64,000 bases of DNA from Nitrososphaeria archaeon (GTDB lineage: Archaea > Thermoproteota > Nitrososphaeria > JACIWG01): assembly GCA_049969935.1 (NCBI GenBank), contig JBMFNX010000004.1, positions 2,366 to 66,365 of the forward strand, written 5' to 3'. Positions within the stretch are counted from its first letter, which is position 1. Each line of letters opens with the position of its first letter. Below, one piece after another: positions 2,649 through 28,859 of this stretch. Both the position numbers and the translations under genes were made by a program. The notes under the pieces were generated by a model, which was given only the letters and a program-made list of their open reading frames with translations, ran no database searches and was not told the origin of the DNA.

Positions 2649-2791
2649 AACTATCCTTTTAGGGTTACTTTTTCCTTTTTATAAAAATTTAGAAAGCATC
2701 AAATTTTTGTTTTGTGTAAAAAAATTTTGACACACCATTATATTATTTTCCAAGTAAACTTTATTAGTGATAGTAGAGCATATGATGTGAA
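2649..2791. promoter_or_regulatory. Divergent AT-rich promoter region with TATA-like boxes (TTTTTATAAAAATTT at 2676-2690; TTTATTAG at about 2760)
   Basis: Palindromic TATA-like element about 35 nt upstream of the minus-strand ATG (2648); a second TATA-like element about 28 nt upstream of the GH57 ATG (2792). Confidence 0.3.
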
Positions 2792-14030: not shown

Positions 14031-15017
14031 AAAAATCTTCTTGAGACGCCACAGTTCGTCAACTGGACTTTTTTTGACAACAACATTTCTTTCCCTTCTA
14101 GCAATAAGCCGTTCACCTTTACTAAAGTAGCCTATACTGGAAACTTTTACACCATTCTTTTCTAACTCTTCTTTCACATAAATTTCACCTTTAGGGTCCA
14201 CTGCCATCAATAATACACCTGAACTGATCAGCTTTAGCGGGTCCACATTTAATATTCTACAAATTTTTTTAGTCTCTTCTGCAACAGGAATCTTTTCAGC
14301 GTAAACTTTAAAGCCAAGGTTTGAGGCAACACTCATTTCATATATTCCTCCAACCACGCCACCTTCAGTGGGATCATGCATTGCATGAACATATCCTGTT
14401 GAAAAGGCTGTTTCAGCTTCTTTTACAACACTAATTTCTTTAATCATGTTTAAAGCATTCTTTAAAGTCCCACTGTCTATACTGGTAAGATGGTTCATGT
14501 ATTCTCTTGCAAGTATACTTGTACCTTCTAGGCCAGCACATTTAGTCATCATGATCACATCACCTTCCACAGCATTTCTTGCTGTAACATACTTTTCTGC
14601 GAAAGTGAATGCTGTTACAACAAGAATAGTGTTCTCGATTCCTTTGACGACTTCACTGTGGCCGCCTACAACCATAATATCCAATAGCTTGCACGCCTCA
14701 TCCACGTCCTTAGAAATCTTCTTTATCGAAGAAGGTTTTTCATGATCTGATAAGAGTATAACGTTTACAACAAATTTTGGCCTATTACCGCTTGTTGCAA
14801 CATCGTTCGCGTTCACGTTAATCGCATACCATCCAATATCTTTTGAAACACCAGTTATGGGGTCAGTTGAAACTATCATAAACTTGTTCGAGCACCTTAT
14901 TACAGCAAAATCGACACCTATGCCAGCTGACTCTACAACATCTTCATGCCTAACTCCAAAGTATGGGAAAACATATTTTTTTAACAGGTTTTCACCAAGT
15001 TTACCGTATGTTTTCAC
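14025..15017 (-). CDS. AIR synthase-related (PurM superfamily) protein, ThiL/HypE-like
   Basis: GVDFAVI...MIVSTDPITG pattern (ThiL GDDAAV...TTD..VEGVHF), Gly-rich ATP-binding segments; 330 aa. Confidence 0.5.
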   Translation of the reverse strand: MKTYGKLGENLLKKYVFPYFGVRHEDVVESAGIGVDFAVIRCSNKFMIVSTDPITGVSKDIGWYAINVNANDVATSGNRPKFVVNVILLSDHEKPSSIKKISKDVDEACKLLDIMVVGGHSEVVKGIENTILVVTAFTFAEKYVTARNAVEGDVIMMTKCAGLEGTSILAREYMNHLTSIDSGTLKNALNMIKEISVVKEAETAFSTGYVHAMHDPTEGGVVGGIYEMSVASNLGFKVYAEKIPVAEETKKICRILNVDPLKLISSGVLLMAVDPKGEIYVKEELEKNGVKVSSIGYFSKGERLIARRERNVVVKKSPVDELWRLKKIFS

Positions 15018-15089
15018 ATTATATGCTATAAAGTATAATGGTTTTAACCTTTATATTATAAATTTACTCAGCCAAAGAGATGTTGGAAA

Positions 15090-16109
15090 ATGACCTGCAC
15101 AGTTATAGTAGGAGGATTTTTTGGAGACGAGGGAAAGGGTAAGATAATGTCATACCTTTCCCTAAAGGACAATCCGAAGATAGCGGTGAGAGGGGGAGTA
15201 GGCCCGAACGCTGGACATACAGTAGTGTTTGAGGGAAAAGAGTTTAAGCTGAGAATGCTTCCAAGCGCCATAATAAATAAGAGTACACAGCTTATGATTG
15301 GACCGGGTGTACTTGTAGACCCGAACGTTCTATTAAGGGAGATTGAAACCTTCAGCGCCCACGATAGGGTTAAGGTTGACAGACAATGTGGAGTTATAGA
15401 AGAAAAACATATTGAAATGGATAGAGCGGACGCTTATTTAAAGGGCAAGATAGGTACTACTGGAACAGGATGCGGTCCAGCAAATGTTGACAGAGTAAAA
15501 AGAGTTGGCAAAGTTTGCAGGGACATTGAGTCGCTTTCGAAGTATGTTGACGATGTACCATTTTTGGTTAACGAGGCAATCGCTAGGGGGGAGACGGTGC
15601 ATGTTGAGGGAACACAGGGAACATTCATTTCACTATTTCATGGAACATATCCGTTTGTTACTTCTAAGGATGTGACTGCTTCAGCAATATGCTCGGATGT
15701 GGGAATAGGGCCAAAGGTTGTGGACGATGTCATCGTAGTATTCAAGGCTTACGTTACAAGGGTTGGGGGAGGAGACTTGCCTGGAGAACTGCCTCCCGAA
15801 GAGGCTGAAAAAAGAGGGTGGCTTGAGAAGGCTACTGTCACTGGCAGAGTTAGGAGGAGTGCGCCATTCAACTTTGATTTGGCGAAGAGGGCTGTAATGT
15901 TAAATTCTGCAACACAGATTGCTATAACAAAATTTGATGTACTCTTCCCCCAGGCAAAAAATTTGCGTGAATTTTCTAGGCTACCTAGTGAGGCTAAAGA
16001 GATGATTGACAGAATAGAGGATGCTACAGGAGTTCCTGTAACCATAATAAGTACGGGAGCTGAGGCTGAGGCGACAATAGATAGGAGAAAGGAGCTAGGT
16101 TTTCTTTAA
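15090..16109 (+). CDS. purA: Adenylosuccinate synthetase (short archaeal form)
   Basis: GGFFGDEGKGK P-loop-like motif, GPNAGHTV, GTTGTGCGP; 339 aa. Confidence 0.85.
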   Translation: MTCTVIVGGFFGDEGKGKIMSYLSLKDNPKIAVRGGVGPNAGHTVVFEGKEFKLRMLPSAIINKSTQLMIGPGVLVDPNVLLREIETFSAHDRVKVDRQCGVIEEKHIEMDRADAYLKGKIGTTGTGCGPANVDRVKRVGKVCRDIESLSKYVDDVPFLVNEAIARGETVHVEGTQGTFISLFHGTYPFVTSKDVTASAICSDVGIGPKVVDDVIVVFKAYVTRVGGGDLPGELPPEEAEKRGWLEKATVTGRVRRSAPFNFDLAKRAVMLNSATQIAITKFDVLFPQAKNLREFSRLPSEAKEMIDRIEDATGVPVTIISTGAEAEATIDRRKELGFL

Positions 16110-17311
16110 ACTGCTTCCCACATTTTATGGTATAAACCGAACTCTTTGAAGGCCTCGCATGCAGCTCTAATGTTTTCTAATGGAACCTTTAAAGCTATAG
16201 TATCGCATGGGTCAATCCATCCAGCAATAAGGCCTCCGTTAAACCTTCCTAGGCAGTCGACAATCTTTTTGGCTTCAAACCTAATATTTTCATTTGAACT
16301 GTATATTGTTGTTTGATTATCAACACATGTTAGAAAACATATTTTTCCACCAAAATTTTCTCCCAAAAAAGGTAAAGTGAATAGTGATGTTGGTTGAGGA
16401 ATGTTAATCACATCCAAACCTACATCAATAAAATCTTCAATAATAGGGTGAATTTTTTCATCAGAATGTAATATTGCATGCATACCATACTTTGTCAAAA
16501 AGAACTTTGTATCTTGGCTTAAAAAATTGTCTAAATACGTTTGGGGAAACAAAGAGGCCTGCTGTGAAACGTTCTGTCCGAGCATTAACTTCCGTAACGC
16601 CTTCATCCTTCCCTCCTCTTTTCATGGGAGGGCTTTCGCCGTGAACGGTTGAAGACGGCACATCCCTCTAGTGCTCTAACCCCACATATCGCCCACAAGA
16701 GGGCATCGGGCTTTCTTCCCCCTATCCAGAGATCCCATGGAATTAATAAACTTAACGCGGGCTAGAAGCAGTTTCACACCCCAGTCATCAGTAAAAAATA
16801 TACCTTCAACATCAAGTTCACCCCATTGCTTGACAAGGTTCTCTTGCACTTCAAGAACATTGTCAGCCAAGACAGACACCTTTTCAGGATATTTGTAGAG
16901 GTCTAGTAGAAGATTTTTAAAGCCTCTCAAAAAATGCATCCTCTCAAAGAGTGTGAAGGGTACACTTCCAACCAAATACTTGTCCTTAAAAACTTGATCG
17001 CCATTAGAAGTTTTTAAAACAATTTTAAGCTTAGGAAACTCGTAGACGTCTAAATTTCTCCAATCTTTCAGAGGGTGACCAGTAACCATCTCCATTGTCC
17101 TCCATTCATTAACTGAAGGAATGGACCAATAGCAACCCCATTCATCTAAGCCTGAAATTCCATGATATGGATCCCATGATCTAGCATATTTGCCGACAAA
17201 ATTTGCTTGGACCTCAAGCACATCACTTTCATTTAGCTCAGTAAACCATAGTGGAACACGTTCTGGACCATTAAATTTTATGGTATCGATAACAATATTT
17301 CGACCGCCCAT
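16106..17311 (-). pseudogene. Uroporphyrinogen-decarboxylase-like (URO-D/MtaA family) gene interrupted by in-frame TAG (16676-16678) and TGA (16622-16624)
   Basis: N-part (16676-17311) aligns to URO-D through IFFTDDWG; C-part (16106-16606) aligns to the URO-D C-terminal third. Both are in the same frame, separated by two stops inside a GC-rich hairpin-rich roughly 110-nt segment. Confidence 0.5.
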
Positions 17312-17343
17312 ATAATCGCATCACTTTAGACAAATATTATTGT

Positions 17344-18333
17344 TTATTTTCTATAAAATTTTCTGGTTCCACTTCTAATCCTATTTACTACCGATTTTGT
17401 AAGCTTAAAATTATTTTCTTTCAAACACAATATGATTGCACCTTCAATTGTGGTTGGACTGGGTTTCTTTACTAAAGCTTTTGGCAGAAAGTGTTTGACA
17501 TAACGTCTAAAATATTGCCATACTATTGGCCCAGACCTGAACACGCCACCAGCACATCCAACGGTGACCTTAGAGGATTCCATTCCCAACTTTTTTGCAA
17601 CAGAATATGCTAGAAGGGCAAGTTCTTCACCAGCACTTTCAATAATCTTCTTAGCAACCCTGTCACCCATTTGATAGGCTTTAACAACAATTGGCGCAAG
17701 TGATGCAATCTTAGTCTTTCCAGTGTCTTCATAAATCTTTTCAATAAAGTCATCGAATTCTTTCACACCAAAGCCTTCCATAAAAAGCTTCAACAGAATC
17801 GTTCTTTCACATAGGCCGTCATAGGATTTTACAGCCATGGTAAGACCCTCTTTTGCAATAAAGTATGCGCTACCACCATCGCTAACAAGCCATTCCCAGC
17901 CGCCTGACCTAGCAGCATCACCCTTCACATTTACTCCATAGGCTATTGAACCAGTACCAGAAATAACGACAATACCCGGATAACCATAGGTCACGGTATA
18001 ATATGCTGTCACATGATCTCCTACAATAATCGGTTTCTTAACCACATTCAATTCGCTTAAAAGCTTTGTGAAAACTTCAAAATCCTTTTTAGTGTCTAGA
18101 GCTGCTACACCAAAACAGCCTGAATCTAGAACATGCTCTTCTATACCAGACGAGTTAAAAGCACTTTTTATTGATGTAAGCAAGTTTTCTTTAACATCTT
18201 TAAAGCTCATAACATGATGACTGCTTGGGCCTGAAAAACCCATACCGAAAACATTACCTCTTGAATCAAATATTGCGGAAACAGTATTTGATGCTCCACA
18301 TTCGACAGCCAAAAAGATATTAGAGTATTTCAA
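17344..18333 (-). CDS. BadF/BadG/BcrA/BcrD-type ATPase, N-acetylglucosamine/sugar kinase family
   Basis: ASKHA-fold motifs: GTGSIAYG, SGGWEWLVSDGGSAYFIA, CAGGVF; 329 aa; paralog of 22077-23051. Confidence 0.65.
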   Translation of the reverse strand: MKYSNIFLAVECGASNTVSAIFDSRGNVFGMGFSGPSSHHVMSFKDVKENLLTSIKSAFNSSGIEEHVLDSGCFGVAALDTKKDFEVFTKLLSELNVVKKPIIVGDHVTAYYTVTYGYPGIVVISGTGSIAYGVNVKGDAARSGGWEWLVSDGGSAYFIAKEGLTMAVKSYDGLCERTILLKLFMEGFGVKEFDDFIEKIYEDTGKTKIASLAPIVVKAYQMGDRVAKKIIESAGEELALLAYSVAKKLGMESSKVTVGCAGGVFRSGPIVWQYFRRYVKHFLPKALVKKPSPTTIEGAIILCLKENNFKLTKSVVNRIRSGTRKFYRK

Positions 18334-18409
18334 TTTAATTGTCCACCATCAATTTGTTAAAAAATTTTATAATAAAAATTTTTATTTCAAAAATTTAGTA
18401 GTCTTTCCC

Positions 18410-20197
18410 ATGACAATCTACTATTCTATAGAGGAGGCAGACAATAATGTAACTATTCCAGAAGAGAAGATTGAAAGTATATTGGTTGGATTAGATAAGT
18501 TTGTAGAAACTCTAATAGTGGAGGCGGTGGAGTTTAAGAAAAAGAGGAATAGGGGGTGCAGGATTGCTTTTGACGGATATCTTGGAATAGATTGGAACCA
18601 AATTGTTTCAAAGGTGAATAGGGAATCTCAAGGCAAACTAAAGATAAGGGTGTACAATTTTCTAGAATACTATGATACTAATGTATTGAATAAGGTTGTT
18701 GACAAAGCTCTTTCAGCTGACAAAAGTTTTGGCTACGTTTACAGAGGAAGGTTAAGTAAACTTCTTAAAATAGAAAGAGTTGAGAAACTTAAAACTGAAG
18801 TTTCAAAGAATGATAAGAAAGTTGATACAATCGTATGCATGGGCCCAGGTTCAGCAAACCCAACACTTAGAAGAGTATATGATAAAATATACTATTTTGA
18901 TATAACAAGGGAAACATTATTTAATAGTTCAGAAAAGAATCCAGTATATTTTATTGGAAGCGAAAATAGGATTCCAGTTCATCAGCTTATGAGAAGATTC
19001 TATTACGTGGACGGGCCTGTGCTTGACGCTCACAAAAAGTACATTCTAAAGCACACAGATTTTTATGTAGAATGTAATAGTATAGAAAATATGAAGGTTG
19101 TCCCTAAGGATGTATACTATTACATTCTTTCAAAGGTGGCTGAACAGCCCTTTAGAATAAAACCATTATATTATCCTGTGACATGGGGAGGAAATTGGTT
19201 AAAAAGGATAAAGGGGCTTCCTAAGGAAATGCCGAATTCTGGGCAAGGGTGTATAGTGGCGTCAGAGAACAGTATAAGAATAGTTGTTAATGAAAGGATT
19301 TTAATTGAGATACCTTTCCAAAATCTTCTTTGGGCATATCCAAGCAAGATATTGGGTGAAAAAGTGAATAGAAAGTTTGGTGGAGAATTTCCATTCACCT
19401 ACTGGTATGATGACCAGATCGGTGGAGGAGACATGGCTATACAGGTTCATGCAAGTGGAAAATATTTAAGGGAAAAGTTTAATGAAAAAATAAGGCAGGA
19501 TGAAAGCTATTATATAGTTTATACGGCAGAGGGGGCCAAAACATATCTTGGGCTCAGAGAAAATGCTGACGTAAGAGAATTTTATGAGAAAGCTTTATTG
19601 GCTGAAAGAGAGCATATTCCATTTGACCACAACCTCTACGTTTTCAGTATTCCCACAAAACCTGGAGACTATTTCCTAATACCAGCGGGTACAGTTCACG
19701 CTTCCGGAAGAAACCAGGTTGTTCTAGAAATAGATTGGGGCATAAGCGCATATAGTTCAGGGTACACGTTTCACATATACGATTACCTTAGACCAGACTT
19801 GGATGGAAGCCTCCGTGCAATACATCTTGAACATTCCTTTAAGGTTCTGAAAAGTTACAGGAGAGAGAAGTGGGTTCTAAAAAATTTGAGACAGGAGCCT
19901 AAACTTTTGAGGAAGGGTGAAGGGTGGGCGGAATATGCTATTGGAGAGAGGGAAGACATGTATTTTAAGACTCATAGGCTAGAGTTCAGGAAGGAAATTG
20001 AAGATGATACGGTTGGACAGTTTCATATGCTAACCCTTGTTGAAGGAGATAAGGTTTTGGTTACAACTGATGATGGTAAAAAGTATGTACTAGATTTTCC
20101 GGACACGCTGACGGTTCCAGCATGTGTTGGAAGATATAGGATTGTTAATCTTGGAGATGGTACAGCTAAGGTTGTTAAGGCACTGATAAGGTTATAG
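18410..20197 (+). CDS. Class I mannose-6-phosphate isomerase (cupin PMI) domain fused to an uncharacterized roughly 240-aa N-terminal domain
   Basis: C-terminal 350 aa match Bacillus-type ManA: [58 protein letters not shown]; N-domain has no recognisable motif. Confidence 0.6.
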
Positions 20198-20938
20198 TGG
20201 CTTTATTCTTCCAAAATATTCTTTATAGTATGCTATATTATGTTCGTCTCCACCTGGAACATTACCTTCCATCCATATCTTTGGCCTAACATTTTTTTCC
20301 ATCAGCTTTTCTACAACCCTCAATTCTATAGAATGTAGTATAAAAGAGTTCACGATCGTGGAAAGGGGGGCCATCCTCTGATTTAAGCCTTCAACATTTA
20401 CGGCGGCATCTCCTGTTGGAACCTTATTGTCAATAACAATGTCGGCAACCTCATACAATTTCTTATTTAACGGGTTTGATGCTGGAACACTTTTAGAATA
20501 TTCAAGAGACGTTAATGCTATAACATTAATGCCTCGAGATTTTGCTTCAAAAGCCATTTCAACTGGAACAGCATTTTTACCCGAATTGGATACGATAATC
20601 AACGTCGACCCAGGTTCAGGATTATAGTAATCCAATAGTGCCTTAGCATAGCCTGAAAGCCTTTCAACATATGTTGCTTTAAGTGCACCATTATAGCCTG
20701 ACACACTTAAGTCAAGGAAAGGATAAACTTGTACAAGCCCACCTGACCTAGTAAACATTTCCATAGCAAGCATCATAGAATGTCCTGTACCAAATATGTA
20801 TACAAGCTTATTGGAGGCTATAGAATCTACAATGCAGTCAGATGCCTTTTCGATTGAAGAGTACTCCTCCAAGTAGACTTTTTCTATAGTGTCCAAAATA
20901 TATTTTTTGTAAGTTTCAACTATTTTGCTCATACACAC
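20192..20938 (-). CDS. SIS-domain protein, UPF0309 family
   Basis: [46 protein letters not shown]-terminal GGDEHN; collinear with Bacillus UPF0309 proteins; 248 aa. Confidence 0.6.
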
Positions 20939-21021
20939 TTCTTAGAATTAAAGAAAATTTAAACTCTACGCTAAAGACATAGAAAATTTAATATATTTAA
21001 TGTAATCTGGATAATAATGTT

Positions 21022-22074
21022 ATGGTCCTAAAAGAGTATAATATGATAAAAGATATAAGGGAAACACCTTTTGCACTAAAATCCGTTTTAGAAGAGACAA
21101 AAAAATTTGATAGCTTGAAAGCCTCTGAATACAGGTTTAAAAAGGCATTCTTCATTGGATGTGGTTCATCATATTATGCAGCATTATATGGAATATGGCC
21201 GCTTCTTAAAAACGACAATATTTTAGCCTACGCGCTCCCATCGTCAGAACTTTTAATCAACTTTATGGACATGGTTGATGAAAAAAGTCTAATTGTTGGA
21301 ACATCAAGGTCAGGGAAGACTGCTGAAACTGTGACAGCTCTTGAAACTTGCAAGAAAAGGGGTGCATATACGTTAGGGTTCACAATAGAAAAAGAAACTA
21401 AAATATTCGATGTAACAGATGAGACAATTTTATTTGACATTGGAGGAGAAAAGAGTATTATTATGACAAAAAGTTTCACCTCGTTCTGTTTTGCCACAGC
21501 ACTGTTTTCAACAATTTTAAGTGAAAAAATTTCAGGCAAACGACATAAGCTTTTAGAAGAAAGTATAGAAATTGTTTCCTTGTCTGAAAAACTTTTAAGG
21601 GGAGAAGATAAAATTATACCTATTTCAAATAGGCTTGTTGCCGAAAATGTGGAGCGATTTGTTTTCCTAGGTTCTGGACCATCATATCCAATAGCATTAG
21701 AGGGGGCGTTAAAAATTAAGGAAACATCATATGCTGCAACAGAGGGACTTCACCTTCTTGAATTCCGACATGGTCCAATGGCAAGTGTTGGTGAAAAGCA
21801 GACGTTGGTTATCTCATGCTTTCTTGGAGAACATTATTCTTATCTGAAAAATTTTGTTACAGAGTTTACTGGCAAGCGTGCTGACCTAATATTGATAACT
21901 GATTCAAGAGAGTTTGGAGAAAATATTATAGAAATTCCTACAGAATATAGTGTTGAATGTAAAGCATTACTGTCTATTATTCCAATACAAATTTTAGCCT
22001 ACTATTATGCAGTAGGTAAAGGAAGAGACCCGGATAGGCCTAGAAACCTTTCCCGTTACATACCAAGGTTTTAG
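21022..22074 (+). CDS. Double-SIS sugar-phosphate isomerase/deaminase (GlmS isomerase-domain-like; AgaS/NagB-II/FrlB-type)
   Basis: Two SIS modules (FFIGCGSSYYAA...GTSRSGKTAETV; FLGSGPSYPIALEGALKIKE); 350 aa with no glutaminase domain. Confidence 0.7.
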   Translation: MVLKEYNMIKDIRETPFALKSVLEETKKFDSLKASEYRFKKAFFIGCGSSYYAALYGIWPLLKNDNILAYALPSSELLINFMDMVDEKSLIVGTSRSGKTAETVTALETCKKRGAYTLGFTIEKETKIFDVTDETILFDIGGEKSIIMTKSFTSFCFATALFSTILSEKISGKRHKLLEESIEIVSLSEKLLRGEDKIIPISNRLVAENVERFVFLGSGPSYPIALEGALKIKETSYAATEGLHLLEFRHGPMASVGEKQTLVISCFLGEHYSYLKNFVTEFTGKRADLILITDSREFGENIIEIPTEYSVECKALLSIIPIQILAYYYAVGKGRDPDRPRNLSRYIPRF

Positions 22075-22076
22075 AC

Positions 22077-23051
22077 ATGATCATACTCTGCATGGATATC
22101 GGTAAAACTAAAACGTTGGCAGTCTCTTTAAACGAGAACGGGAAAGTTTTCGGTAAGTTCATAGCAGGGCCTTCTGGAATGTGGTTGAAGGAAGAGATTA
22201 TTGTAAAAAATGTTAGAGAGGCTATAGAAGGGTGCCTAAAAATTTCGAACATACAATTAAAGGATGTTAGGTTAATTTCTATAAGCTGGGCTGACCTTGA
22301 TACGCCAAAGGATTGGGAGAACGCATGGAAGGTTATAGAAAAAGTAGGTATCGAAAAGGATAGGGTTTTGATCGAACATGATGCGGTAGCAGCATACTAT
22401 GCTATAACTTGGGGTGAACCAGGTGTAGCAGTTATTGGAGGAACAGGGAGCATAGCTTATGGAGTAAACAGGTGTGGTGAAAGGATGAGGTCAAGTGGTT
22501 GGGGTTGGCTTATTGGTGACGAGGGAAGCGCCTACTGGATAGCGGTCAAAGCGTTAAACGCTGTCTCTAGAGCACATGATGGCAGGGGGAGAGAAACAAT
22601 CTTATCCAAAATGATTATGGAATACTTTGGAGTAAGGGAGGAGCTTGAAATACTGCATAAAATTTACAAGGAGCTGGAAGGAGATCCTACAGAAATTTCA
22701 AGAATTGCAAAGATTGTTGATAAGGCTGCTTCTTTAGGAGATAGAGTTGCAATTGAAATATTAGAGGATGCTGGAAGGGAGTTGGCTTCAGCAATATTAT
22801 GTATTGTCAGAAAGCTTAACATGACAGATGATAGGATAATAGTTGGAGGATTAGGTGGAGTTTTCAGGTCAAATACTGTGAGAGAATCTTTTATCAAAGC
22901 CATTAGAGAAAATATTCCAAACGCCATTTTAAGGGGACCACTTGTAGGTGATCAAGCAATCCTTGGCCCAATAATTATAGCATTTAGAAGACTCGGTTTA
23001 ACAGTATCAGAAAAAAATGTAAGAGCAGTATTGGATGGGTTAGGTGAATAA
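22077..23051 (+). CDS. BadF/BadG/BcrA/BcrD-type ATPase, N-acetylglucosamine/sugar kinase family (paralog 2)
   Basis: GGTGSIAYG, SSGWGWLIGDEGSAYWIA, GGLGGVF; 3 nt downstream of SIS gene (operon). Confidence 0.65.
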   Translation: MIILCMDIGKTKTLAVSLNENGKVFGKFIAGPSGMWLKEEIIVKNVREAIEGCLKISNIQLKDVRLISISWADLDTPKDWENAWKVIEKVGIEKDRVLIEHDAVAAYYAITWGEPGVAVIGGTGSIAYGVNRCGERMRSSGWGWLIGDEGSAYWIAVKALNAVSRAHDGRGRETILSKMIMEYFGVREELEILHKIYKELEGDPTEISRIAKIVDKAASLGDRVAIEILEDAGRELASAILCIVRKLNMTDDRIIVGGLGGVFRSNTVRESFIKAIRENIPNAILRGPLVGDQAILGPIIIAFRRLGLTVSEKNVRAVLDGLGE

Positions 23052-23054
23052 TTT

Positions 23055-23849
23055 TTAGAAGAAGACAGTACCCTTCAGGTATCTTGTTCCAACAATTTTC
23101 AGGTACACAAATATTATTGTTAAAGATATTATCTGCAAGATAGAAGCTTCTGCTGCAACAAAACCGAGCATACCAGCATGTGATATGTCATCGAACACTT
23201 TCACTGGTGCGGTTAAGATGCCTGTTGGACCAGCTAGAAGGAAGGCTGTTATAAACTCGTTAAATGAGAGCACGAAGGTTAAGAGTATACCGGAGGTTAT
23301 ACCTGGACCTATAAGTGGTAGAACAATATAGATAAACCTCTTTAAACCTGTAGCACCTAAACATGCTGCCGCCTCCTCGTAGGAAACTTCCAATCTTCTA
23401 AAGGCAACTATAGAAGATAATAACATCATGGGAAGAAATCCTGTAGTATATGTTACAATAAATCCCAGTATACTTAAACACTGCTTGTATATTAGGTAAA
23501 AGGACAGTATAAGCGATAGAGCGTATGCAATTCCTGGAACATACCATACACCAATTAAAGTAAGAAGTATTGGCCTCTTACCTCTAAACTCGTATCTTGT
23601 TAAAGAGTATGCGGCAGGTATTGCTATGAGCAGATCCAGTACAACAGTTGCCAGTGAAAGTTGAAGGCTTAACCAGACCCTAGGCCAGAAGACTCCTGCC
23701 ATACTGAAATAGTTTGATAAACTAAGCTGACCCTCTGGAGACCAAAGTGAACGCCAGAAGGAGACCATAAAGGGAATAAAAATTAGTATTGATACAAAGA
23801 TTATGTAAATATATGATATTATAGTTGAAAATTCAACCTTTTCCCTCAA
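23055..23849 (-). CDS. ABC transporter permease (PotC-like)
   Basis: Six TM helices; EAA-like loop EAAACLGATGLKRFIYIVLPLIGPG; 264 aa. Confidence 0.75.
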   Translation of the reverse strand: MREKVEFSTIISYIYIIFVSILIFIPFMVSFWRSLWSPEGQLSLSNYFSMAGVFWPRVWLSLQLSLATVVLDLLIAIPAAYSLTRYEFRGKRPILLTLIGVWYVPGIAYALSLILSFYLIYKQCLSILGFIVTYTTGFLPMMLLSSIVAFRRLEVSYEEAAACLGATGLKRFIYIVLPLIGPGITSGILLTFVLSFNEFITAFLLAGPTGILTAPVKVFDDISHAGMLGFVAAEASILQIISLTIIFVYLKIVGTRYLKGTVFF

Positions 23850-24685
23850 ATCAGTACACCTCTAGAAACTTTAAGTGAAATGAACGTGAATATTAGTGAT
23901 ATAATTACTAGGGCTGAAGCGAGCGCGGCTGCGAGACCATAGTTCATCATCAAAAGGCCTACCATGCGAATCTGTATAGATAGAACTCTTTGGCCTACCA
24001 CAACACCGCCCATCAAATATGGTATAGCGTATGCGCCAATATTCCATCCGAAGGCCATAAACCATCCACCCATAAGACCCGGCAAGCTCAATGGAAGCAA
24101 AATATGCATGAACCTTCTAAACCGGTCTGCTCCAAGACAGCTTGAAGCCTCCTCTAAGACAGGGTCTATTTGGCTTATGTTTATACCCATCTGTAGGACA
24201 GCGAATGGTAGAGTGTATATTGCGAGAGCCAATGCGGCGGTTACTGGAGTATAGAGTATGGCAAAAGGGGATATGCCGATTGACTCGAGGAAGGATGAGA
24301 AGGGGCCCTTTGGTAGAAAAAGCCACCAGAAGCCGTATGCTATGTAAAGTTCTCCAAGCAATGGAACCATCAAAATTGACCTAAAAAAGTCTGAAAGAAA
24401 CCTTACCTTTCTAAGCAGCAGGTAGGCATATGGGTAGCCTACAATAACATCCAATGTTGCAGAGAAGGCGGCCAACATAAGTGTATTCCTGAAGTCTGGA
24501 ATATAGTTGGTTGTTATCTTAACATAGTTTTCTAAAGTGAATATTGGTTGGAAGAAGTAGCTTGAACCCTTTGTGAAGCTAACATAGAATAGTAGTATGA
24601 ATGGTATAATAAAGAATAGGACTGCAAATGTTAAGGCTGGAATAATAAATATTATTGGCTTAATTTTTTCAAAATATTCGTTCAT
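23846..24685 (-). CDS. ABC transporter permease (PotB-like)
   Basis: EASSCLGADRFRRFMHILLPLSLPGL EAA motif; multi-TM; 4-nt overlap with downstream permease. Confidence 0.75.
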   Translation of the reverse strand: MNEYFEKIKPIIFIIPALTFAVLFFIIPFILLFYVSFTKGSSYFFQPIFTLENYVKITTNYIPDFRNTLMLAAFSATLDVIVGYPYAYLLLRKVRFLSDFFRSILMVPLLGELYIAYGFWWLFLPKGPFSSFLESIGISPFAILYTPVTAALALAIYTLPFAVLQMGINISQIDPVLEEASSCLGADRFRRFMHILLPLSLPGLMGGWFMAFGWNIGAYAIPYLMGGVVVGQRVLSIQIRMVGLLMMNYGLAAALASALVIISLIFTFISLKVSRGVLI

Positions 24686-24719
24686 AATATTCTACCAAAA
24701 AATTTTTAGGAGCCAGAAG

Positions 24720-26048
24720 CTATCCACCTATAAGCTTCTGGTAGTATGAGACCCATTCTTCAGCATGCGCGTTAATGTATTCCCAGTCCAGAATCTGCAT
24801 AGATGGGTAAATGTATTTCTTGTACTGGTCTAGTGTTGGGAAAACCTTGTAAAAGTTTTCTTTTCCACCCCACCAGTCTGGTATAAACTGTTCATAGTAT
24901 GGGCCAAGCGGGCCTTCGATCATTCCAGCCCAAAGCTTCTTCGCTTCAGTTGGATTAAGTTCCTTAAAGCCTGGAGAATTGATGTCTGGGAACTGGAACT
25001 CTTTGCTCAGAAGCCAGTCAACATATATTTGGGCTAATACTGGATGCTGAGCCTTTTTAGGTATCCATGCAACACCAGGCAAGTTTGGCATGAACGGTTC
25101 AAGAAGCTTGGGACCAAGCCACTTGTTTCCAGCAGCCTGCTCCATTTCATAGCTGCAACACCAGTATGATGTTATCCATGTAACATTCTTTTCAGACAAT
25201 TCAATTATTTCCGCCTCATCACTTGTATACTTTAATACATTTGGATGAATGTTTTTTGCAACCCATTCTATTGCCTTCTTCATTTGCTCAGGATTCTTGT
25301 AATCGTATCCCAATGCTGTTGCAACAGTAGCCAAGAAGGCCCAGAAACCGTTATCTGAAAGAGACCATAAGGTGATTTTACCCTTAAGCCTGGGGTCTGC
25401 AAGATCAAGCCAGCTCTTAACAAAACCAGTCTTTTCTAGATTAAATACTGGTGTAACCATCGCATGCTGCTGGAACTGAACACCATATGGTGCAAATATG
25501 AAGACTGGGTCTACAAAGGCCAGGTTCGGGACAAGCGGCGAAGGCAGGAACGGTTCAGCAACATCCTTTGCCTTTGCCTCTTCAAAGAAGTTTATTTCTA
25601 TATGCATCACATCATATGGTGCCGGCAGTCCCGCTTGGTAGGCAGAGTAAAGTTGGTACATGAAGCCACCCTTAGCCTCCTGTGTGCCAACAAACTTTAC
25701 TTCAATATCGACACCATACTTGTTTTTCACATAGCTCTTGAACGATGGTATAAAATATGTGTCCACAAGGCCCCAGTAGGTCCAGTCCGCGATCGTTATA
25801 GAACCCTCCTTCTTTATTTCATCAACGATTTCTTCATATGACATGTACTTGTTTAATATTGGAACCCAGACTTTACCCTCATAAGGCCAAGGCTGAGGCT
25901 TTCCTGAAGTTTGTGTCACAGTCTTGGTTACAGTTGTTACGCCAGCCGCTGGTGCCGTAAGAAGGTAGATTGTGCTTCCAAGAAATATTAAGGCCAAAAC
26001 TGTTGAGACAAGAAACATGCTTTTCCAATTCATGATATTCACCGTCAA
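24720..26048 (-). CDS. ABC transporter substrate-binding protein (family 1 SBP) with N-terminal membrane anchor
   Basis: N-terminal hydrophobic helix then Thr/Val-rich linker (VTTVTKTVTQTSGKP); Trp/Tyr-rich periplasmic-binding-protein-like body; 442 aa. Confidence 0.6.
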   Translation of the reverse strand: MTVNIMNWKSMFLVSTVLALIFLGSTIYLLTAPAAGVTTVTKTVTQTSGKPQPWPYEGKVWVPILNKYMSYEEIVDEIKKEGSITIADWTYWGLVDTYFIPSFKSYVKNKYGVDIEVKFVGTQEAKGGFMYQLYSAYQAGLPAPYDVMHIEINFFEEAKAKDVAEPFLPSPLVPNLAFVDPVFIFAPYGVQFQQHAMVTPVFNLEKTGFVKSWLDLADPRLKGKITLWSLSDNGFWAFLATVATALGYDYKNPEQMKKAIEWVAKNIHPNVLKYTSDEAEIIELSEKNVTWITSYWCCSYEMEQAAGNKWLGPKLLEPFMPNLPGVAWIPKKAQHPVLAQIYVDWLLSKEFQFPDINSPGFKELNPTEAKKLWAGMIEGPLGPYYEQFIPDWWGGKENFYKVFPTLDQYKKYIYPSMQILDWEYINAHAEEWVSYYQKLIGG

Positions 26049-26163
26049 AGAATATTAAAGAGCATATTATTTAAATTTTTTCTTGCCGCGGAAACTTATT
26101 ATAAAAAATTGAGAAATTATAATTTTATAATATACATTTTGCATAAAATTTTTATAAAAAGGT

Positions 26164-27237
26164 TTAGGCCTTTTTAATGATCGTGAATCGTCTTATATGG
26201 AATTTTCTTGAGCCTACCGCGTCAACCATTTTAAACCTGTCAGGGCCATAGAGGTCGACCTTAAGAAGTCTATTCCCGAGGCTTATCATTAAACGAGTAT
26301 TTGTTCCAAGGAATGTAGAACGTTCAATCTTTGCCTCGAAAACATTATCCTTATCTTTAGGATCTTCTATAACTTCTATATCTTCCGGCCTTATGCTTAA
26401 AATTATGCTATCATTAACCTCGTATTCTTGAACATTGGGCATGGGATCGGATACAAGGGAGAGGTCTTGGACATTAATCTTCAACCTATTTCCTGTAACT
26501 TCAGCAATTGTTCCCTCGAGGAAATTGGATGTTCCAATAAAGTCTGCTACAAAGTCTGATTGAGGGTTTAGATATAGTTCTAAGGGTGTTCCAACCTGCT
26601 GAACCCGTCCATGATTCATGACATAAACTTTGTCCGATATCGCGAAGGCTTCAGCCTGATCGTGTGTGACATAAATTGCAGTCTTGCCAGTCTCCTTCTG
26701 GATGCGTCTAATCTCATATTTTAGATCATCTCTTAATTTTGCATCCAGATGGCCTAAGGGTTCATCGAAAAGTAGAACTTCAGGGTCTGTAGCCAGAACT
26801 CTTGCAATATCAATACGCTGTACTTGGCCACCGCTAAGCTGTGAGGGCATCCTCTCCTCGAAGCCTTCCATATGTACAAGTTTGAGAACCTCCTTAACCC
26901 TTGTATCAATCTCATTTTTTGGAAACTTTCTCATTTTAAGTCCGAAGGCAACATTCTTGTAAACGTTCATGTGTGGGAAAAGTGCGACCTTTTGGAAAAC
27001 GAAGCCGATGCTCCTCTTGTGGGGGGGCACGTTTGTTACATCCTTTTCACCAAAGTATACTTTTCCAGTATCAGGCTTAACCAGGCCAGAAATTATTCTT
27101 AACGTTGTAGTTTTACCGCATCCACTTGGACCAAGTAGTGTCACAAGCTCTTTATCTTTTGCTTCAATGTTCACATGATCGACGGCCAAAAAATCTCCAA
27201 AACGTTTAGATATGTCGACAGCCCTAACACTGACCAT
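26164..27237 (-). CDS. ABC transporter ATP-binding protein (PotA/MalK-like with C-terminal TOBE-like domain)
   Basis: Walker A LLGPSGCGKTT, signature LSGGQVQR, Walker B LLFDEPLGHLD; 357 aa. Confidence 0.85.
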   Translation of the reverse strand: MVSVRAVDISKRFGDFLAVDHVNIEAKDKELVTLLGPSGCGKTTTLRIISGLVKPDTGKVYFGEKDVTNVPPHKRSIGFVFQKVALFPHMNVYKNVAFGLKMRKFPKNEIDTRVKEVLKLVHMEGFEERMPSQLSGGQVQRIDIARVLATDPEVLLFDEPLGHLDAKLRDDLKYEIRRIQKETGKTAIYVTHDQAEAFAISDKVYVMNHGRVQQVGTPLELYLNPQSDFVADFIGTSNFLEGTIAEVTGNRLKINVQDLSLVSDPMPNVQEYEVNDSIILSIRPEDIEVIEDPKDKDNVFEAKIERSTFLGTNTRLMISLGNRLLKVDLYGPDRFKMVDAVGSRKFHIRRFTIIKKA

Positions 27238-27282
27238 ACATTCTATTTTCAGGTAAACATCTTATAAGTTTTAAGTACTATA

Positions 27283-28494
27283 TTAGCTTATGCTTGAAAT
27301 TAGTTTAGTAAACTCCTTTTCAGACACTCTCTTCTCCAGATACCATGCAAGATACTTTGAAAACGTTTCATAGAATTTGTTTGAAAATTTTTCGTTGAAA
27401 CAGTTTTTGTAGCTATTGTAAAATATCTTTTCCTCAAAATCCAATATATTACTTTCGAAAATTTTTGATGAACCTTTAATCGGGGGAAAGAATCCGGTTT
27501 CAATTAACCCTTTCAGGAAATTGGGCTCATATAGTTCCTCTAAAAATTTTATCGATAAGTGAACATTCTTTGAACTTTTGCATATTCCGAAAGCCATAAG
27601 GTAGCCAACCGAATTTGAGGACATTGAATTCGATGGAATCGGAGCGATTCCAATGTTTTCCATCCCACGATTGGATAGGGTGTGTACTGCGTAATTCCAT
27701 TGTATCATGATAGGAAACCTTTCTGCAATAAATTCGTCATCTAATACAGAAGATTCAAGATAAATGACTTCAGGGGGAGAAATTTTTTCTTTCATCAAAA
27801 AAGAATAGGTGTCTAGGAGACTTTCTATTGTTTCATTAGACAAAAATTTTATGGTCGAATTTGTTGCAAGAGTCTGGCCGCCAAGGTTTTCATAAAGTGA
27901 TTGAAATACTAGAGAAGAATGTCTTCCTTCAAGAGAGTAGATGGCGAGACCGTATTCGGTTGGAGAATTTGGATTACATGCTTTTGAAAAATTTTTTGCA
28001 ATTAGAATTAGTTGGTTAAAAGATTTCGGTGGTTCAATAATATAGTTTTTGTTATATACAAGGATTGGGAATGAGGTGTGGAATGGTAGAGCGTAAAGGC
28101 TTCCATTGCTATAGAAGGTGCGTACGGCTTTTTCATAAAATTGTTCAGTTAAACTAAGATTTAATGGTAGAAGATATGGTAAGATTTCTTTAAAATTAAA
28201 GTTTGTGACAACAATCATGTCTATTGAAGAATTTTTTGATGATAAAATAGTTGGAAGAATAGATTCTTTATCAAAATCTATTACATTAACATAGAAGCCC
28301 ATTTTTTGGAAACTAGGATTCCATCTTTCAATCAGATTCTTGAAGGCGATAGCGTCTGGAGCAAGATAATGTGATAGAAAAACAACATTAATTTCATTAG
28401 CTGGTTTAACATGATATTGATTATATAATAGAGGGAGTGTGATTATAGAAAGCAATAGTATGGATATGATTATAGCCAACCTTCTTGAACGCAT
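27283..28494 (-). CDS. Putative second substrate-binding protein (divergent family 1 SBP-like) with N-terminal membrane anchor
   Basis: N-terminal TM helix (LAIIISILLLSIITLPLL); Asn/Tyr/Phe-rich soluble body; first gene of the transporter operon. Confidence 0.4.
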   Translation of the reverse strand: MRSRRLAIIISILLLSIITLPLLYNQYHVKPANEINVVFLSHYLAPDAIAFKNLIERWNPSFQKMGFYVNVIDFDKESILPTILSSKNSSIDMIVVTNFNFKEILPYLLPLNLSLTEQFYEKAVRTFYSNGSLYALPFHTSFPILVYNKNYIIEPPKSFNQLILIAKNFSKACNPNSPTEYGLAIYSLEGRHSSLVFQSLYENLGGQTLATNSTIKFLSNETIESLLDTYSFLMKEKISPPEVIYLESSVLDDEFIAERFPIMIQWNYAVHTLSNRGMENIGIAPIPSNSMSSNSVGYLMAFGICKSSKNVHLSIKFLEELYEPNFLKGLIETGFFPPIKGSSKIFESNILDFEEKIFYNSYKNCFNEKFSNKFYETFSKYLAWYLEKRVSEKEFTKLISSIS

Positions 28495-28561
28495 TAAGCA
28501 TACATGTTACTGAATTGGATATAAGGTTTAAAAATTAAAAATGATAGAGGAGTAGGCTACG

Positions 28562-28816
28562 ATGATGATAAAAATGGTGACCGTCAAATTTGAGAAGATA
28601 AAGGATAAGGTTGAGGAATTTAATGCATTCGTTAAAGAGAAGAAAAATATTGAGGGAAAGGTTGACGGTGATACAATAGTGTTTGAAAACATTGATAGAG
28701 ACGATTTAAGGCTTCTCTTAAAAAAGTTTCTTCACAGGATCGATGGAGACGATTTTAGAGTGGTATCTAAAGTAGGCGTTCTGACCGTGGTGGAGAAAAG
28801 GAAGTTTAAAATGTAG
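28562..28816 (+). CDS. Small hypothetical protein (84 aa) with eL22-like sequence pattern
   Basis: FNAFVKEKKNIEGKVDG..IVFENIDR and DLRLLLKKFLHRIDGDDFRVV resemble the eL22 core (FEQFLQERIKVNGKAGN..VVTIER; KKYLKKNNLRDWLRVV); 43 nt upstream of argS. Confidence 0.35.
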   Translation: MMIKMVTVKFEKIKDKVEEFNAFVKEKKNIEGKVDGDTIVFENIDRDDLRLLLKKFLHRIDGDDFRVVSKVGVLTVVEKRKFKM

Positions 28817-28859
28817 GAGTTAGCTTTTTAAAGCTAGTAGGCATATAAAAGGGAAAGAT

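Follow-up and report, generated by a model that had tools for sequence, protein, structure and literature searches.

Gene content and layout of the locus

The window analysed here, a stretch of 64,000 nucleotides, carries eleven adjacent genes at positions 16106-28494, flanked by the housekeeping genes for PurA (15090-16109) and ArgRS (28860-30758). The cluster was delimited from the list of open reading frames and from Pfam and NCBIfam searches, and the families assigned hold for all eleven genes. The original prediction had described a sugar or amino-sugar locus with a Pot-type ABC importer in a Thaumarchaeota-like genome, and all of the genes that it named are confirmed in place. Its view of the source also agrees with our data: the 595-residue protein of the cluster is 100% identical to an NCBI protein from "Nitrososphaeria archaeon", and a eukaryote-type TopoIB is encoded in the window. 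The host is a thermophilic archaeon of the Nitrososphaeria (Thaumarchaeota/Aigarchaeota-like).

The first gene (16106-17311, minus strand) codes for a URO-D/MtaA-like protein and is split into two ORF fragments, 16106-16606 and 16676-17311. It carries a 210-nt insertion (16568-16777; 51% G+C) with in-frame stops, and 8 nt are deleted after position 16493. With the Pfam URO-D model, the 3' fragment reaches no more than 20.6 bits. Orthologues of 334-343 residues are intact in four related loci (L003, L004, L006 and L148); the one from L003 reaches 66.8 bits with PF01208. As read from these lesions, the gene is a pseudogene in the source genome, and therefore contributes no active step there. The URO-D-like member of the original set is thus present but broken; it is a putative accessory gene.

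It is followed by the gene for a BadF-type ATP-dependent sugar kinase (kinase 1; 17344-18333, minus strand; PF01869, E = 8e-33), by that for the 595-residue phosphomannose isomerase (PMI) fusion, PMI595 (18410-20197, plus strand), and by a UPF0309 gene for a SIS_2 phosphosugar enzyme related to NagS and MurQ (20192-20938, minus strand; NF002805, 276 bits against a cut-off of 135). A stand-alone double-SIS protein with two SIS stretches in Pfam, similar to GlmD and to the isomerase domain of GlmS (21022-22074, plus strand), precedes a second BadF-type ATP-dependent sugar kinase (kinase 2; 22077-23051, plus strand; PF01869, E = 2e-40). The 2-nt gap between these two genes suggests that they are probably co-transcribed.

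The remaining five genes, all on the minus strand, encode an ABC system. Two BPD_transp_1 permeases have PotC (23055-23849) and PotB (23846-24685; 102 bits) as their top NCBIfam matches. They are followed by SBP1, a membrane-anchored SBP_bac_6 binding protein with a cluster-D (PotD/AfuA/FbpA-like) fold (24720-26048), by an ATPase of the PotA/PhnT/MalK class with ABC_tran and TOBE_2 domains (26164-27237; PhnT2, 359 bits; PotA, 339 bits), and by SBP2, a membrane-anchored SBP_bac_8, MalE-like (CUT1-type) sugar-binding protein (27283-28494). The order SBP1-ATPase-SBP2 differs from that first listed, and the ATPase gene therefore lies between those of the two binding proteins.

Conservation and chromosomal position

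The full cluster is syntenic in seven Nitrososphaeria and Wolframiiraptor relatives (L148, L003, L004, L006, L009, L092 and L093). In L148, all eleven genes are intact and the locus is colinear, with 88.5% nucleotide identity. A core formed by SBP1, the two permeases, the ATPase, kinase 2, the double-SIS protein and the SIS_2 protein is found again in Thermofilaceae (L086, L107 and L146). Because the same gene order occurs on independent public contigs, the arrangement is neither due to chance nor an assembly artefact. The ortholog and synteny search proposed originally thus finds the core across archaeal classes, which disposes of the idea that the genes might be co-conserved nowhere else. 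In the archaeon HR01, moreover, the SBP1 homologue and its ABC genes adjoin a double-SIS gene and a PfkB kinase.

The locus also lies between purA and argS in L003, L004 and L006, where PMI595 is 75-92% identical, and in L148, and the G+C content of the cluster is unremarkable. This shared position and composition speak against an island acquired by horizontal transfer, and the term "island" is not retained. Breakage is seen in relatives as well: the first permease is split in L003, and L006 has a shortened SBP1 and no ATPase. That different genes are broken in different relatives may reflect relaxed selection or errors in the assembly of metagenome-derived genomes (MAGs).

Predicted enzymes and binding proteins

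By sequence, the cluster is built from known enzyme families. Three of its parts, however, belong to groups without a characterised member: the UPF0309 clade of archaea, the PMI fusion, whose P-loop-kinase-like domain is degenerate, and the SBP1 family. No published description of this gene combination was found in the literature, in line with the earlier statement that it does not represent a described pathway.

The best solved relatives of both kinases are the broad-specificity hexokinase of S. tokodaii (2e2n; 2e-40 for kinase 1, 1e-38 for kinase 2), which acts on Glc, Man, GlcN and GlcNAc, and the MurNAc/GlcNAc kinase MurK (8zo3; 5e-38 and 7e-33, respectively). No CoA-enzyme activase was among their PDB matches at E <= 1e-3. 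The double-SIS protein is closest to 2cb0 of P. furiosus (1e-36); PH0510 of P. horikoshii, T. maritima 1j5x ("glucosamine-6-phosphate deaminase") and the isomerase domains of GFAT are other close relatives. It is stand-alone, conserved and GlmD-like, and not a fragment of GlmS. Both reservations attached to the original prediction, that the kinases could be CoA-enzyme activases and the SIS protein a piece of GlmS, are thereby removed.

Against the curated NCBIfam models, the double-SIS protein reaches 184 bits with the GlmS C-terminal model, 147 with GlmD (equivalog cut-off 580), 63 with NagB_SO3506 (430) and 45 with FrlB (430). The kinases reach about 79-88 bits with NagK_SO3507 (370), and the PMI part of PMI595 30 bits with ManA (116). 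Every enzyme lies far under the equivalog cut-off, and substrates are therefore not readable from the scores. The pairing of a BadF kinase with an adjoining double-SIS protein, both matched by the models, recalls the Shewanella-type GlcNAc pathway (NagK, NagA and NagB-II). The cluster differs from it not only in those scores but also in having no NagA, in using Pot-type ABC uptake and in carrying the additional UPF0309 and PMI-fusion genes. It likewise resembles the end steps of chitin and GlcN utilisation in the Thermococcales (GlcN kinase and GlmD), where a double-SIS protein works alongside a sugar kinase and an ABC importer. That pathway, however, employs an ADP-dependent kinase, the deacetylase Dac, the glucosaminidase GlmA and a Dpp-type transporter, whereas the cluster has BadF-type kinases, neither Dac nor GlmA, and a Pot-type transporter.

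Residues 246-595 of PMI595 form a class I PMI bicupin which, unlike the enzymes of B. subtilis (1qwr) and A. fulgidus (1zx5), scores under the Pfam and TIGR cut-offs and is preceded by an extra domain. This 245-residue alpha/beta domain (residues 1-245) resembles P-loop kinases in fold, lacks a Walker A motif and is almost confined to the fusion family. In bacterial homologues a ROK sugar kinase is adjoining or fused in 46 of 77 loci, and sugar ABC transporters and glycosidases, GH38 alpha-mannosidase among them, lie around these genes.

The UPF0309 protein matches 3cvj and 9eol in the PDB. The latter is NagS (SCO4393), the GlcNAc-6-P dehydratase of Streptomycetaceae and the sole UPF0309 protein characterised so far (PMC12680351). 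At 32% identity, the cluster protein retains the full catalytic and binding set of NagS: its residues H53, S54, R64, E92, S117, S119, D177 and N226 align with active-site residues of NagS, and the NagS residues H53, R64, E94, D179, S91 (Thr in the cluster protein) and N228, which are essential or important, are kept. The nagS gene, however, stands alone, and the cluster gene sits in a catabolic transporter and kinase locus and lacks the dmdR1 synteny. When the neighbours of UPF0309 genes were counted without bias in 80 metagenomic loci, the specific ones met most often were NagA (19), double-SIS (13), PTS EI (12), BadF (11), EIIA (11), a ceramidase-like amidase (10) and the GH84 beta-N-acetylglucosaminidase (5); two NagA copies tested from these neighbourhoods passed the NagA equivalog cut-off.

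In a structural model of SBP1 (pLDDT 85.9), the N terminus forms a helix and a linker is disordered. The model has the cluster-D fold; in Foldseek, PotD, SpuD, MctA, FutA and AfuA tie near E = 1e-12. Since the ligands of these proteins range from polyamines, iron and metal-citrate to sugar phosphates and the scores are equal, no single ligand class is picked out. Invariant positions in the SBP1 family carry aromatic, acidic and polar residues but never Lys, Arg or His, a pattern that would suit a neutral or cationic sugar more than an anion. Thermofilum and HR01 have SBP1 orthologues in sugar loci. SBP2 is closest to Thermotoga MalE1 (6dtu, 2gha; 5e-10), and its gene occupies the equivalent place in the operons of L148, L092 and L093. 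The importer thus shares PotB-, PotC- and PotA-like subunits and a cluster-D protein with the PotABCD (spermidine/putrescine) and AfuABC (hexose-phosphate) systems, but combines binding proteins of two families in one operon, in a consistently sugar-catabolic context.

A candidate pathway and its alternatives

We give slightly better than even chances to the view that the locus is a vertically inherited, multi-operon system for the uptake of free hexosamines and mannose-type hexoses and their catabolism to fructose-6-P. The sugars would enter through the Pot-type translocator, served by both binding proteins, and be converted to 6-phosphates by the two kinases; three phosphosugar enzymes would then converge on fructose-6-P. 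The double-SIS protein would deaminate and isomerise 2-amino-2-deoxy-hexose-6-P (GlcN-6-P to Fru-6-P and NH3), and the PMI domain would interconvert Man-6-P and Fru-6-P. The UPF0309 protein may open the ring of a hexosamine-6-P that is N-acylated, or otherwise modified at C2/C3, and deprotonate it at C2; elimination or epimerisation would follow, as it does with NagS and MurQ. The data show the families, conserved active sites, gene order and co-conservation directly; the identity of the sugars, the pairing of kinases and binding proteins with each branch, and the UPF0309 reaction are inferred.

Several observations speak against this pathway. The enzymes score far under the equivalog cut-offs, the fold matches of SBP1 tie across ligand classes, and the broken genes differ from relative to relative. 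No N-acetylhexosamine-6-P deacetylase, NagA or ceramidase-like, is found in the cluster or among the window ORFs scanned, whose sole amidohydrolase is a dihydroorotase. In addition, UPF0309 homologues 26-36% identical to NagS show negligible or no GlcNAc-6-P dehydratase activity (PMC12680351). Nor does the cluster encode a glycosidase; among the window ORFs scanned, the only one is an unrelated GH57 (2792-4114). Because the cluster has neither glycosidase nor deacetylase, free monosaccharides are a more likely cargo than the glycans first suggested.

It is unlikely, in our view, that the locus salvages peptidoglycan-derived MurNAc and GlcNAc. One BadF kinase would then be MurK-like and act on MurNAc/GlcNAc, and a MurQ-like UPF0309 etherase would strip the 3-O-substituent to give GlcNAc-6-P, to be deacetylated elsewhere and deaminated by the double-SIS protein. 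The MurK matches of both kinases are consistent with this, as are the frequent NagA and GH84 neighbours of UPF0309 and the position of NagS beside MurQ in the SIS phylogeny, MurQ catalysis corresponding in its first half to the NagS chemistry (PMC12680351). However, the window lacks NagA, etherase activity is known for no UPF0309 protein, and the MurQ NCBIfam model misses the SIS_2 protein at E <= 1e-3, matching only the double-SIS protein, weakly (21.6 bits). The PMI fusion would also be left unexplained.

Distinctly unlikely is the use of Amadori products (fructosamines), also suggested originally, in which glycated amines would be imported, phosphorylated at position 6 and cleaved by a double-SIS deglycase to Glc-6-P or Fru-6-P and the amine. 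The B. subtilis frlBONMD-yurJ genes encode a binding protein, two permeases, an ATPase, a kinase and a double-SIS protein, an architecture that the cluster parallels. The PfkB kinase in HR01 is of the FrlD family type, a DJ-1/PfpI protein is repeatedly found close to PMI595 homologues in bacteria, and hot habitats would favour Maillard chemistry. Yet the FrlB score is well under those of the GlmS C-terminal and GlmD models, the FrlB-like entry 3eua matches at 9e-11 against 1e-36 for 2cb0, the FrlB and FrlD equivalogs are not reached, and the cluster kinases belong to the BadF type and not to PfkB. UPF0309 is surrounded by NagA, GH84 and PTS parts rather than by amino-acid enzymes.

We find it quite improbable that the transporter is unrelated to the enzymes, importing polyamines or iron, or that it takes up hexose-6-phosphates as AfuA does. 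The best PDB sequence match of SBP1 is indeed AfuA (4r72-4r75; E = 4e-4), described as binding G6P and F6P, and the permeases and ATPase score highest on Pot/Phn models. Against this, SBP1, the permeases and the ATPase are linked to BadF, double-SIS and UPF0309 genes in Nitrososphaeria, Wolframiiraptor and Thermofilaceae, and to a double-SIS protein and a kinase in HR01. The SBP1 family has no invariant basic residue, and two kinases would be superfluous for phosphorylated cargo. Improbable to the same degree is a decaying locus that has lost its function in the source lineage, as the broken URO-D-like gene and the damage in L003 and L006 might suggest: the other ten genes in the window are full-length with conserved active-site residues, L148 is intact, and an isolated frameshift in a MAG can stem from misassembly. 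Reactions of the GlmD/GlmS and PMI types can run in both directions, and a full GlmS adjoins UPF0309 in Infirmifilum and Thermofilum, but it is very improbable that the locus serves biosynthesis by providing GlcN-6-P and Man-6-P for glycosylation or for precursors of the cell envelope: GlmM, GlmU, phosphomannomutase and nucleotidyltransferase are all absent by Pfam, and the locus embeds a binding-protein-dependent importer and two kinases.

An eleven-gene cluster and its relatives

Open reading frames, their translations and Pfam and NCBIfam searches confirmed that all of the genes listed in the original prediction are present at 16106-28494. We think it reasonably likely that this cluster of eleven adjacent genes imports sugars, phosphorylates them at C6 and converts them to fructose-6-P. 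Free sugars would enter via two binding proteins, and two hexokinase/MurK-like kinases would phosphorylate them. Three enzymes would then convert the products to fructose-6-P, with a GlmD-like double-SIS enzyme working on a 2-amino sugar-6-P, the PMI domain of a fusion protein on Man-6-P, and a UPF0309 protein on a hexosamine-6-P with an N-acyl or other modification. The analysis shows to which families the proteins belong, that their catalytic residues are conserved and that the genes are kept together; the sugars and the assignment of enzymes to branches are predictions.

The objection that these genes might not be co-conserved anywhere else proved false, as synteny was found in the genomes of relatives, in metagenomes and, for a core of genes, in Thermofilaceae. 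A scan of a species-representative genome collection returned 301 stretches with relatives of the 595-residue PMI fusion (PMI595). The complete cluster is syntenic in the loci L003 (92% identity), L004 and L006 (both 75%) and in a Wolframiiraptor MAG (L009, 59%). A metagenome scan added L148, which is colinear with the window over 14036-30000 at 88.5% nucleotide identity and has all eleven genes intact, and two further syntenic loci, L092 and L093. The core SBP1-permease-permease-ATPase-BadF2-double-SIS-UPF0309 (SBP1 being a binding protein and BadF2 a kinase) also occurs in three loci of the Thermofilaceae, a different archaeal class (L086, L107, L146), where it is accompanied by NagA, a GatZ/KbaZ-like gene and PTS components. 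The gene order of the cluster is repeated on independent Logan and JGI contigs, and PMI595 is 100% identical to an NCBI protein from a 'Nitrososphaeria archaeon' MAG. The G+C content of the cluster is unremarkable. Housekeeping genes lie on both sides of it (PurA, an AIR-synthase-like gene, UPP synthase and ArgRS) and make up the remaining window (TopoIB, RadA, thermosome, IMPDH, ABCE1, dihydroorotase and others).

Some relatives carry broken genes. The permease gene Perm1 is split into two ORFs in L003 (9854-10553 of that locus), and in L006 (16308-18033) SBP1 is shortened to 217 aa and no ATPase gene is present; that different genes are broken in different relatives reflects either relaxed selection on the locus or MAG assembly errors. 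Separately, among the Thermofilaceae, Infirmifilum uzonense (CP009961, 846-865 kb; L083) and the Thermofilum MAG of L086 possess all parts of a mannose-family PTS (EI, HPr, EIIA-man, IIB-sorb and IIC/IID-AGA). Clustered with these parts are genes for NagA, GlmS, UPF0309, a neutral-ceramidase-like amidase, a GFO/IDH/MocA oxidoreductase and DUF7916, and the whole looks like an archaeal PTS-based amino-sugar locus.

Kinases, SIS proteins and the isomerase fusion

The two kinases, BadF1 (17344-18333, minus strand; Pfam BadF/BcrAD, E = 8e-33) and BadF2 (22077-23051, plus strand; same family in Pfam), both have the broad-specificity ATP-hexokinase of Sulfolobus tokodaii, 2e2n, as their best PDB match (E = 2e-40 and 1e-38, respectively). 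A MurNAc/GlcNAc kinase (MurK, 8zo3) and human GlcNAc kinase (NAGK) are further closest solved relatives of both, and no CoA-enzyme ([4Fe-4S]) activase was among the PDB matches of either at E <= 1e-3. Since the closest solved relatives are sugar kinases, the identity as CoA-enzyme activases, which would have spoken against the original prediction, can be set aside. The kinases score 87.8 and 79.4 bits against the NagK_SO3507 equivalog, the cut-off of which is 370. That the cluster is a variant of MurNAc/GlcNAc (peptidoglycan) salvage seems to us unlikely. A third ASKHA-type kinase in the window lies outside the cluster, at 51050-51883; this 277-aa protein has a match to Fumble (type II pantothenate kinase-like) and a weak one to BcrAD_BadFG.

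The double-SIS protein (21022-22074, plus strand) has 350 residues with two SIS domains in Pfam and no glutaminase domain, and it remains a stand-alone protein of 343-360 aa in L003, L004, L006, L009 and L086. Its best solved relatives are two stand-alone proteins, 2cb0 of P. furiosus and 2dec of P. horikoshii, and 1j5x of T. maritima, which was deposited under the name 'glucosamine-6-phosphate deaminase'; they are followed by GFAT isomerase domains. The suspicion that this gene might be a fragment of GlmS is dispelled by its conserved length, its stand-alone state in every relative and its closeness to 2cb0. The protein has the architecture of GlmD (NF041128; stand-alone, about 330-360 aa) and scores 147.5 bits against an equivalog cut-off of 580. 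It is a member of a GlmD-like family and not a broken glmS.

The UPF0309 protein (20192-20938, minus strand) belongs to its family with 276.3 bits to NF002805 (cut-off 135) and has an SIS_2 domain at residues 10-144 (149.9 bits). Its solved relatives are 3cvj and 9eol, the latter being NagS (SCO4393) of Streptomyces. NagS, described in 2025, is the only studied member of UPF0309, and it dehydrates GlcNAc-6-P and ManNAc-6-P to 6P-chromogen I (PMC12680351). Over 232 residues, the window protein shares 32% identity with NagS. The catalytic H53, R64, E94 and D179 of NagS, together with S91 and N228, align to H53, R64, E92, D177, T89 and N226, and the phosphate-binding serines are also kept, so that every residue essential or important in NagS is retained (with S91 replaced by T89). 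Orthologues of NagS are defined by an identity of at least 58.7% and by nagS-dmdR1 synteny, and are limited to Streptomycetaceae, while UPF0309 homologues at 26-36% identity showed negligible or no activity on GlcNAc-6-P (PMC12680351). The window protein falls outside this definition, at 32% identity and with PMI and double-SIS genes as neighbours. The shared residues, together with the negligible or absent activity of the 26-36% homologues, suggest that the protein probably shares the chemistry of NagS (ring opening and C2 deprotonation of a hexosamine-6-P) with a different substrate or outcome.

An unbiased census of UPF0309 neighbours in 80 metagenomic loci, mostly from hot springs, firmly places the archaeal UPF0309 clade in N-acetylhexosamine/hexosamine-phosphate metabolism. 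NagA-like amidohydrolases and ABC ATPases were each found in 19 of the 80 loci, and the two NagA-like copies tested pass the NagA equivalog cut-off. Double-SIS/GlmS proteins (13 loci), PTS enzyme I (12), BadF kinases and EIIA (11 each), a neutral-ceramidase-like amidase (10), the PMI fusion (6), GH84 beta-N-acetylglucosaminidase (5) and URO-D-like proteins (5) complete the picture. The NagA/GH84/PTS neighbourhood narrows the candidate substrates to a few hexosamine 6-phosphates. It also bears on the idea that the cluster degrades Amadori compounds by a frl-like pathway. This is improbable, because the double-SIS protein scores low with the FrlB model (45 bits) relative to GlmS-C (184) and GlmD (147), and because UPF0309 has NagA/GH84 neighbourhoods. 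The frl fructosamine operon differs from the cluster further in that an FrlB is expected at 430 bits or more and in its PfkB (FrlD-type) kinase, which the cluster lacks.

In PMI595 (18410-20197, plus strand), Pfam and NCBIfam detect a weak class I PMI/cupin signal in the C-terminal half. The AlphaFold model (pLDDT 91.9) has two domains, and the C-terminal one shows the bicupin fold and the Gln/His/Glu/His metal ligands of class I PMI. The curated PMI models give scores below their cut-offs (TIGR00218, 30 vs 116 bits; MPI_cupin_dom, 16.6 vs 27). The N-terminal domain, P-loop-kinase-like and without a Walker A motif, was found in only 90 cluster representatives in an exhaustive HMMER search. Nearly all of these are the fusion of about 600 aa, N-terminal pieces, possibly fragments, of 100-350 aa, or versions of about 900-990 aa in which the additional N-terminal extension is, in the aligned examples, a ROK-like sugar kinase. 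The family of the ~600-aa fusion comprises more than 600 database proteins. A ROK kinase lies immediately adjacent to bacterial homologues in 46 of 77 loci, and the surroundings include sugar ABC transporters, RpiR regulators, GH38 alpha-mannosidase, GH42-like and DUF6259 proteins. This constant partnership with a kinase supports, from gene context, a putative pair of hexose kinase and hexose-6-P isomerase; more speculatively, the N-terminal domain may dock or regulate the kinase. Directly upstream of the bacterial fusions, in 33 of the 77 loci (L055, 8125-9555, and 32 others), lies a family of about 477 aa with no Pfam or NCBIfam match.

The importer and the URO-D-like gene

The importer has a Pot-type architecture, with PotB/PotC-like permeases, a TOBE ATPase and a cluster-D binding protein, all encoded on the minus strand. 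The BPD_transp_1 permeases have PotC (23055-23849, 66 bits) and PotB (23846-24685, 102 bits) as their best NCBIfam matches, and the ATPase (26164-27237), with a TOBE_2 domain, has PhnT2 and PotA (339 bits); all scores are lower than the Pot equivalog cut-offs (PotA 482, PotB 348, PotC 326). SBP1 (24720-26048; SBP_bac_6) was modeled with a pLDDT of 85.9 and has an N-terminal helix followed by a disordered Thr/Val-rich linker, consistent with predicted anchoring in the membrane. In Foldseek its fold neighbours score alike (E near 1e-12 for each, at roughly 15% identity) and bind different ligands: polyamines (PotD/SpuD, TM up to 0.78), metal-citrate (MctA), iron (FbpA/FutA) and hexose phosphates (AfuA/VcA0625). 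The residues that never vary in the SBP1 family include aromatic, acidic and polar ones and none that is basic, which weakly favours a neutral or cationic sugar as the putative ligand. Elsewhere, too, homologues of SBP1 have sugar-related surroundings: one in the archaeon HR01 is encoded with a double-SIS gene and a PfkB kinase, and one in a bacterium with LacI, dehydrogenases and a HAD hydrolase.

SBP2 (27283-28494; SBP_bac_8) is MalE-like, with the Thermotoga MalE1 entries 6dtu and 2gha as best matches, and L148, L092 and L093 retain it in the corresponding operon. The two binding proteins of the region 24720-28494, one cluster-D (PotD/AfuA-like) and one MalE-like, thus belong to an operon that encodes just one PotB/PotC/PotA-type translocator. 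This arrangement with two binding proteins is conserved in the same three loci, and one Pot-type translocator appears, from gene content, to serve binding proteins of two different families. That the transporter is unrelated to the enzymes, or imports sugar phosphates, is quite improbable.

The URO-D/MtaA-like gene (16106-17311, minus strand) was recognized by Pfam and NCBIfam in two ORF fragments. Relative to intact orthologues of 334-343 aa it has two lesions. Immediately behind the DDWG codons, at 16568-16777, it carries a 210-nt insertion; about 75 nt downstream of this, after position 16493, 8 nt are deleted. The window fragment scores 20.6 bits to PF01208 (cut-off 23.9) and the intact orthologue of L003 66.8 bits; with its broken frame, the copy lies outside the URO-D/MtaA-CmuA family as delimited by that cut-off. 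The two lesions indicate that the gene is a pseudogene here, predicted to be so even with the insertion removed from the transcript. That the locus as a whole has decayed into a non-functional state is quite improbable.

The insertion has a G+C content of 51% vs 37% and is absent from the colinear L148, L003 and L006. It contains no ORF and no tRNA, has no Rfam match at the gathering threshold or at E <= 10, and on neither strand folds better than shuffled sequence. No second copy was found in the window and 88 fetched loci, and an exact 43-mer was not found in JGI metagenome contigs. The first 4 nt of the insertion can pair with the first 4 nt that follow it; this junction pairing lacks 3-nt bulges, which excludes a canonical archaeal (bulge-helix-bulge) intron. 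A 332-aa protein in the Thermofilum ABC operon was considered as a URO-D homologue and rejected for want of similarity. In Ignisphaera MAGs (L084/L085, 7124-9738), and also in L127 and L168, UPF0309 is encoded next to a URO-D/MtaA-like protein and a B12-binding corrinoid protein, and three of the five URO-D-like census loci have such a B12-binding partner. This recurrence in an unrelated lineage hints at a link between URO-D-like proteins and UPF0309, possibly through methyl transfer.

The proposed route and known systems

The main weakness of the proposed import and conversion to fructose-6-P is the missing deacetylase or glycosidase. Neither is encoded in the cluster, and the scan of window ORFs detected no deacetylase, NagA included, and no glycosidase for the pathway. 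The single amidohydrolase of the window (Amidohydro_1, 36501-37802) is a dihydroorotase (TIGR00857, 363 bits) and not NagA. An N-acetylated substrate would therefore need a NagA elsewhere in the genome; otherwise, the substrates would be non-acetylated (GlcN, ManN, mannose).

The cluster follows the logic of importer, kinase and sugar-6-P isomerase/deaminase known from the classical nag, Thermococcus GlcN and frl systems. It differs from all of them in that no cluster enzyme reaches a curated equivalog threshold, and from the canonical nag pathway in the NagA step, not found among the window ORFs scanned. Three of its components belong to uncharacterised families or subfamilies. The locus does not represent a novel and surprising kind of system; the logic is known, and our literature search found no paper describing the combination, in agreement with the original view that it is not a described pathway. 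A search on the UPF0309 name returned nothing, and the Wolframiiraptor paper does not mention the cluster. Only tentatively do we entertain an undescribed archaeal amino-sugar catabolic route with three new elements. In such a route, the NagS/MurQ-related UPF0309 protein would convert an N-acyl- or C3-modified hexosamine-6-phosphate in a new way, either by epimerisation or by an elimination that bypasses or precedes deacetylation; the pseudokinase-PMI fusion would take the manno-configured product; and a polyamine-type cluster-D protein would have been recruited for cationic amino sugars, with a translocator common to it and the MalE-type protein. A biosynthetic role for the cluster is very improbable.

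Heterotrophic thermophilic Nitrososphaeria (Caldarchaeales, Wolframiiraptor relatives) have barely been cultivated, and knowing which sugars they take up would help to cultivate them and to model the carbon cycle of hot springs. For substrate use by these uncultivated thermophiles, and for the function of UPF0309 and the pseudokinase-PMI fusion, the locus offers a useful lead. It provides genomic context for three uncharacterised families: UPF0309 outside Streptomyces, the PMI fusion and a sugar-associated branch of the PotD/AfuA fold. Elsewhere in the window, a eukaryote-type DNA topoisomerase IB (5909-7462; Topoisom_I_N, Topoisom_I and Topo_C_assoc domains) is consistent with an origin in the Nitrososphaeria (Thaumarchaeota/Aigarchaeota). 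A glycogen or alpha-glucan metabolism cluster, unrelated to the locus at 16106-28494, may lie at 347-4114, where a GalT-like/DUF4921 protein is encoded together with a GH57 enzyme and a GT4 glycosyltransferase that weakly matches a starch-synthase domain.
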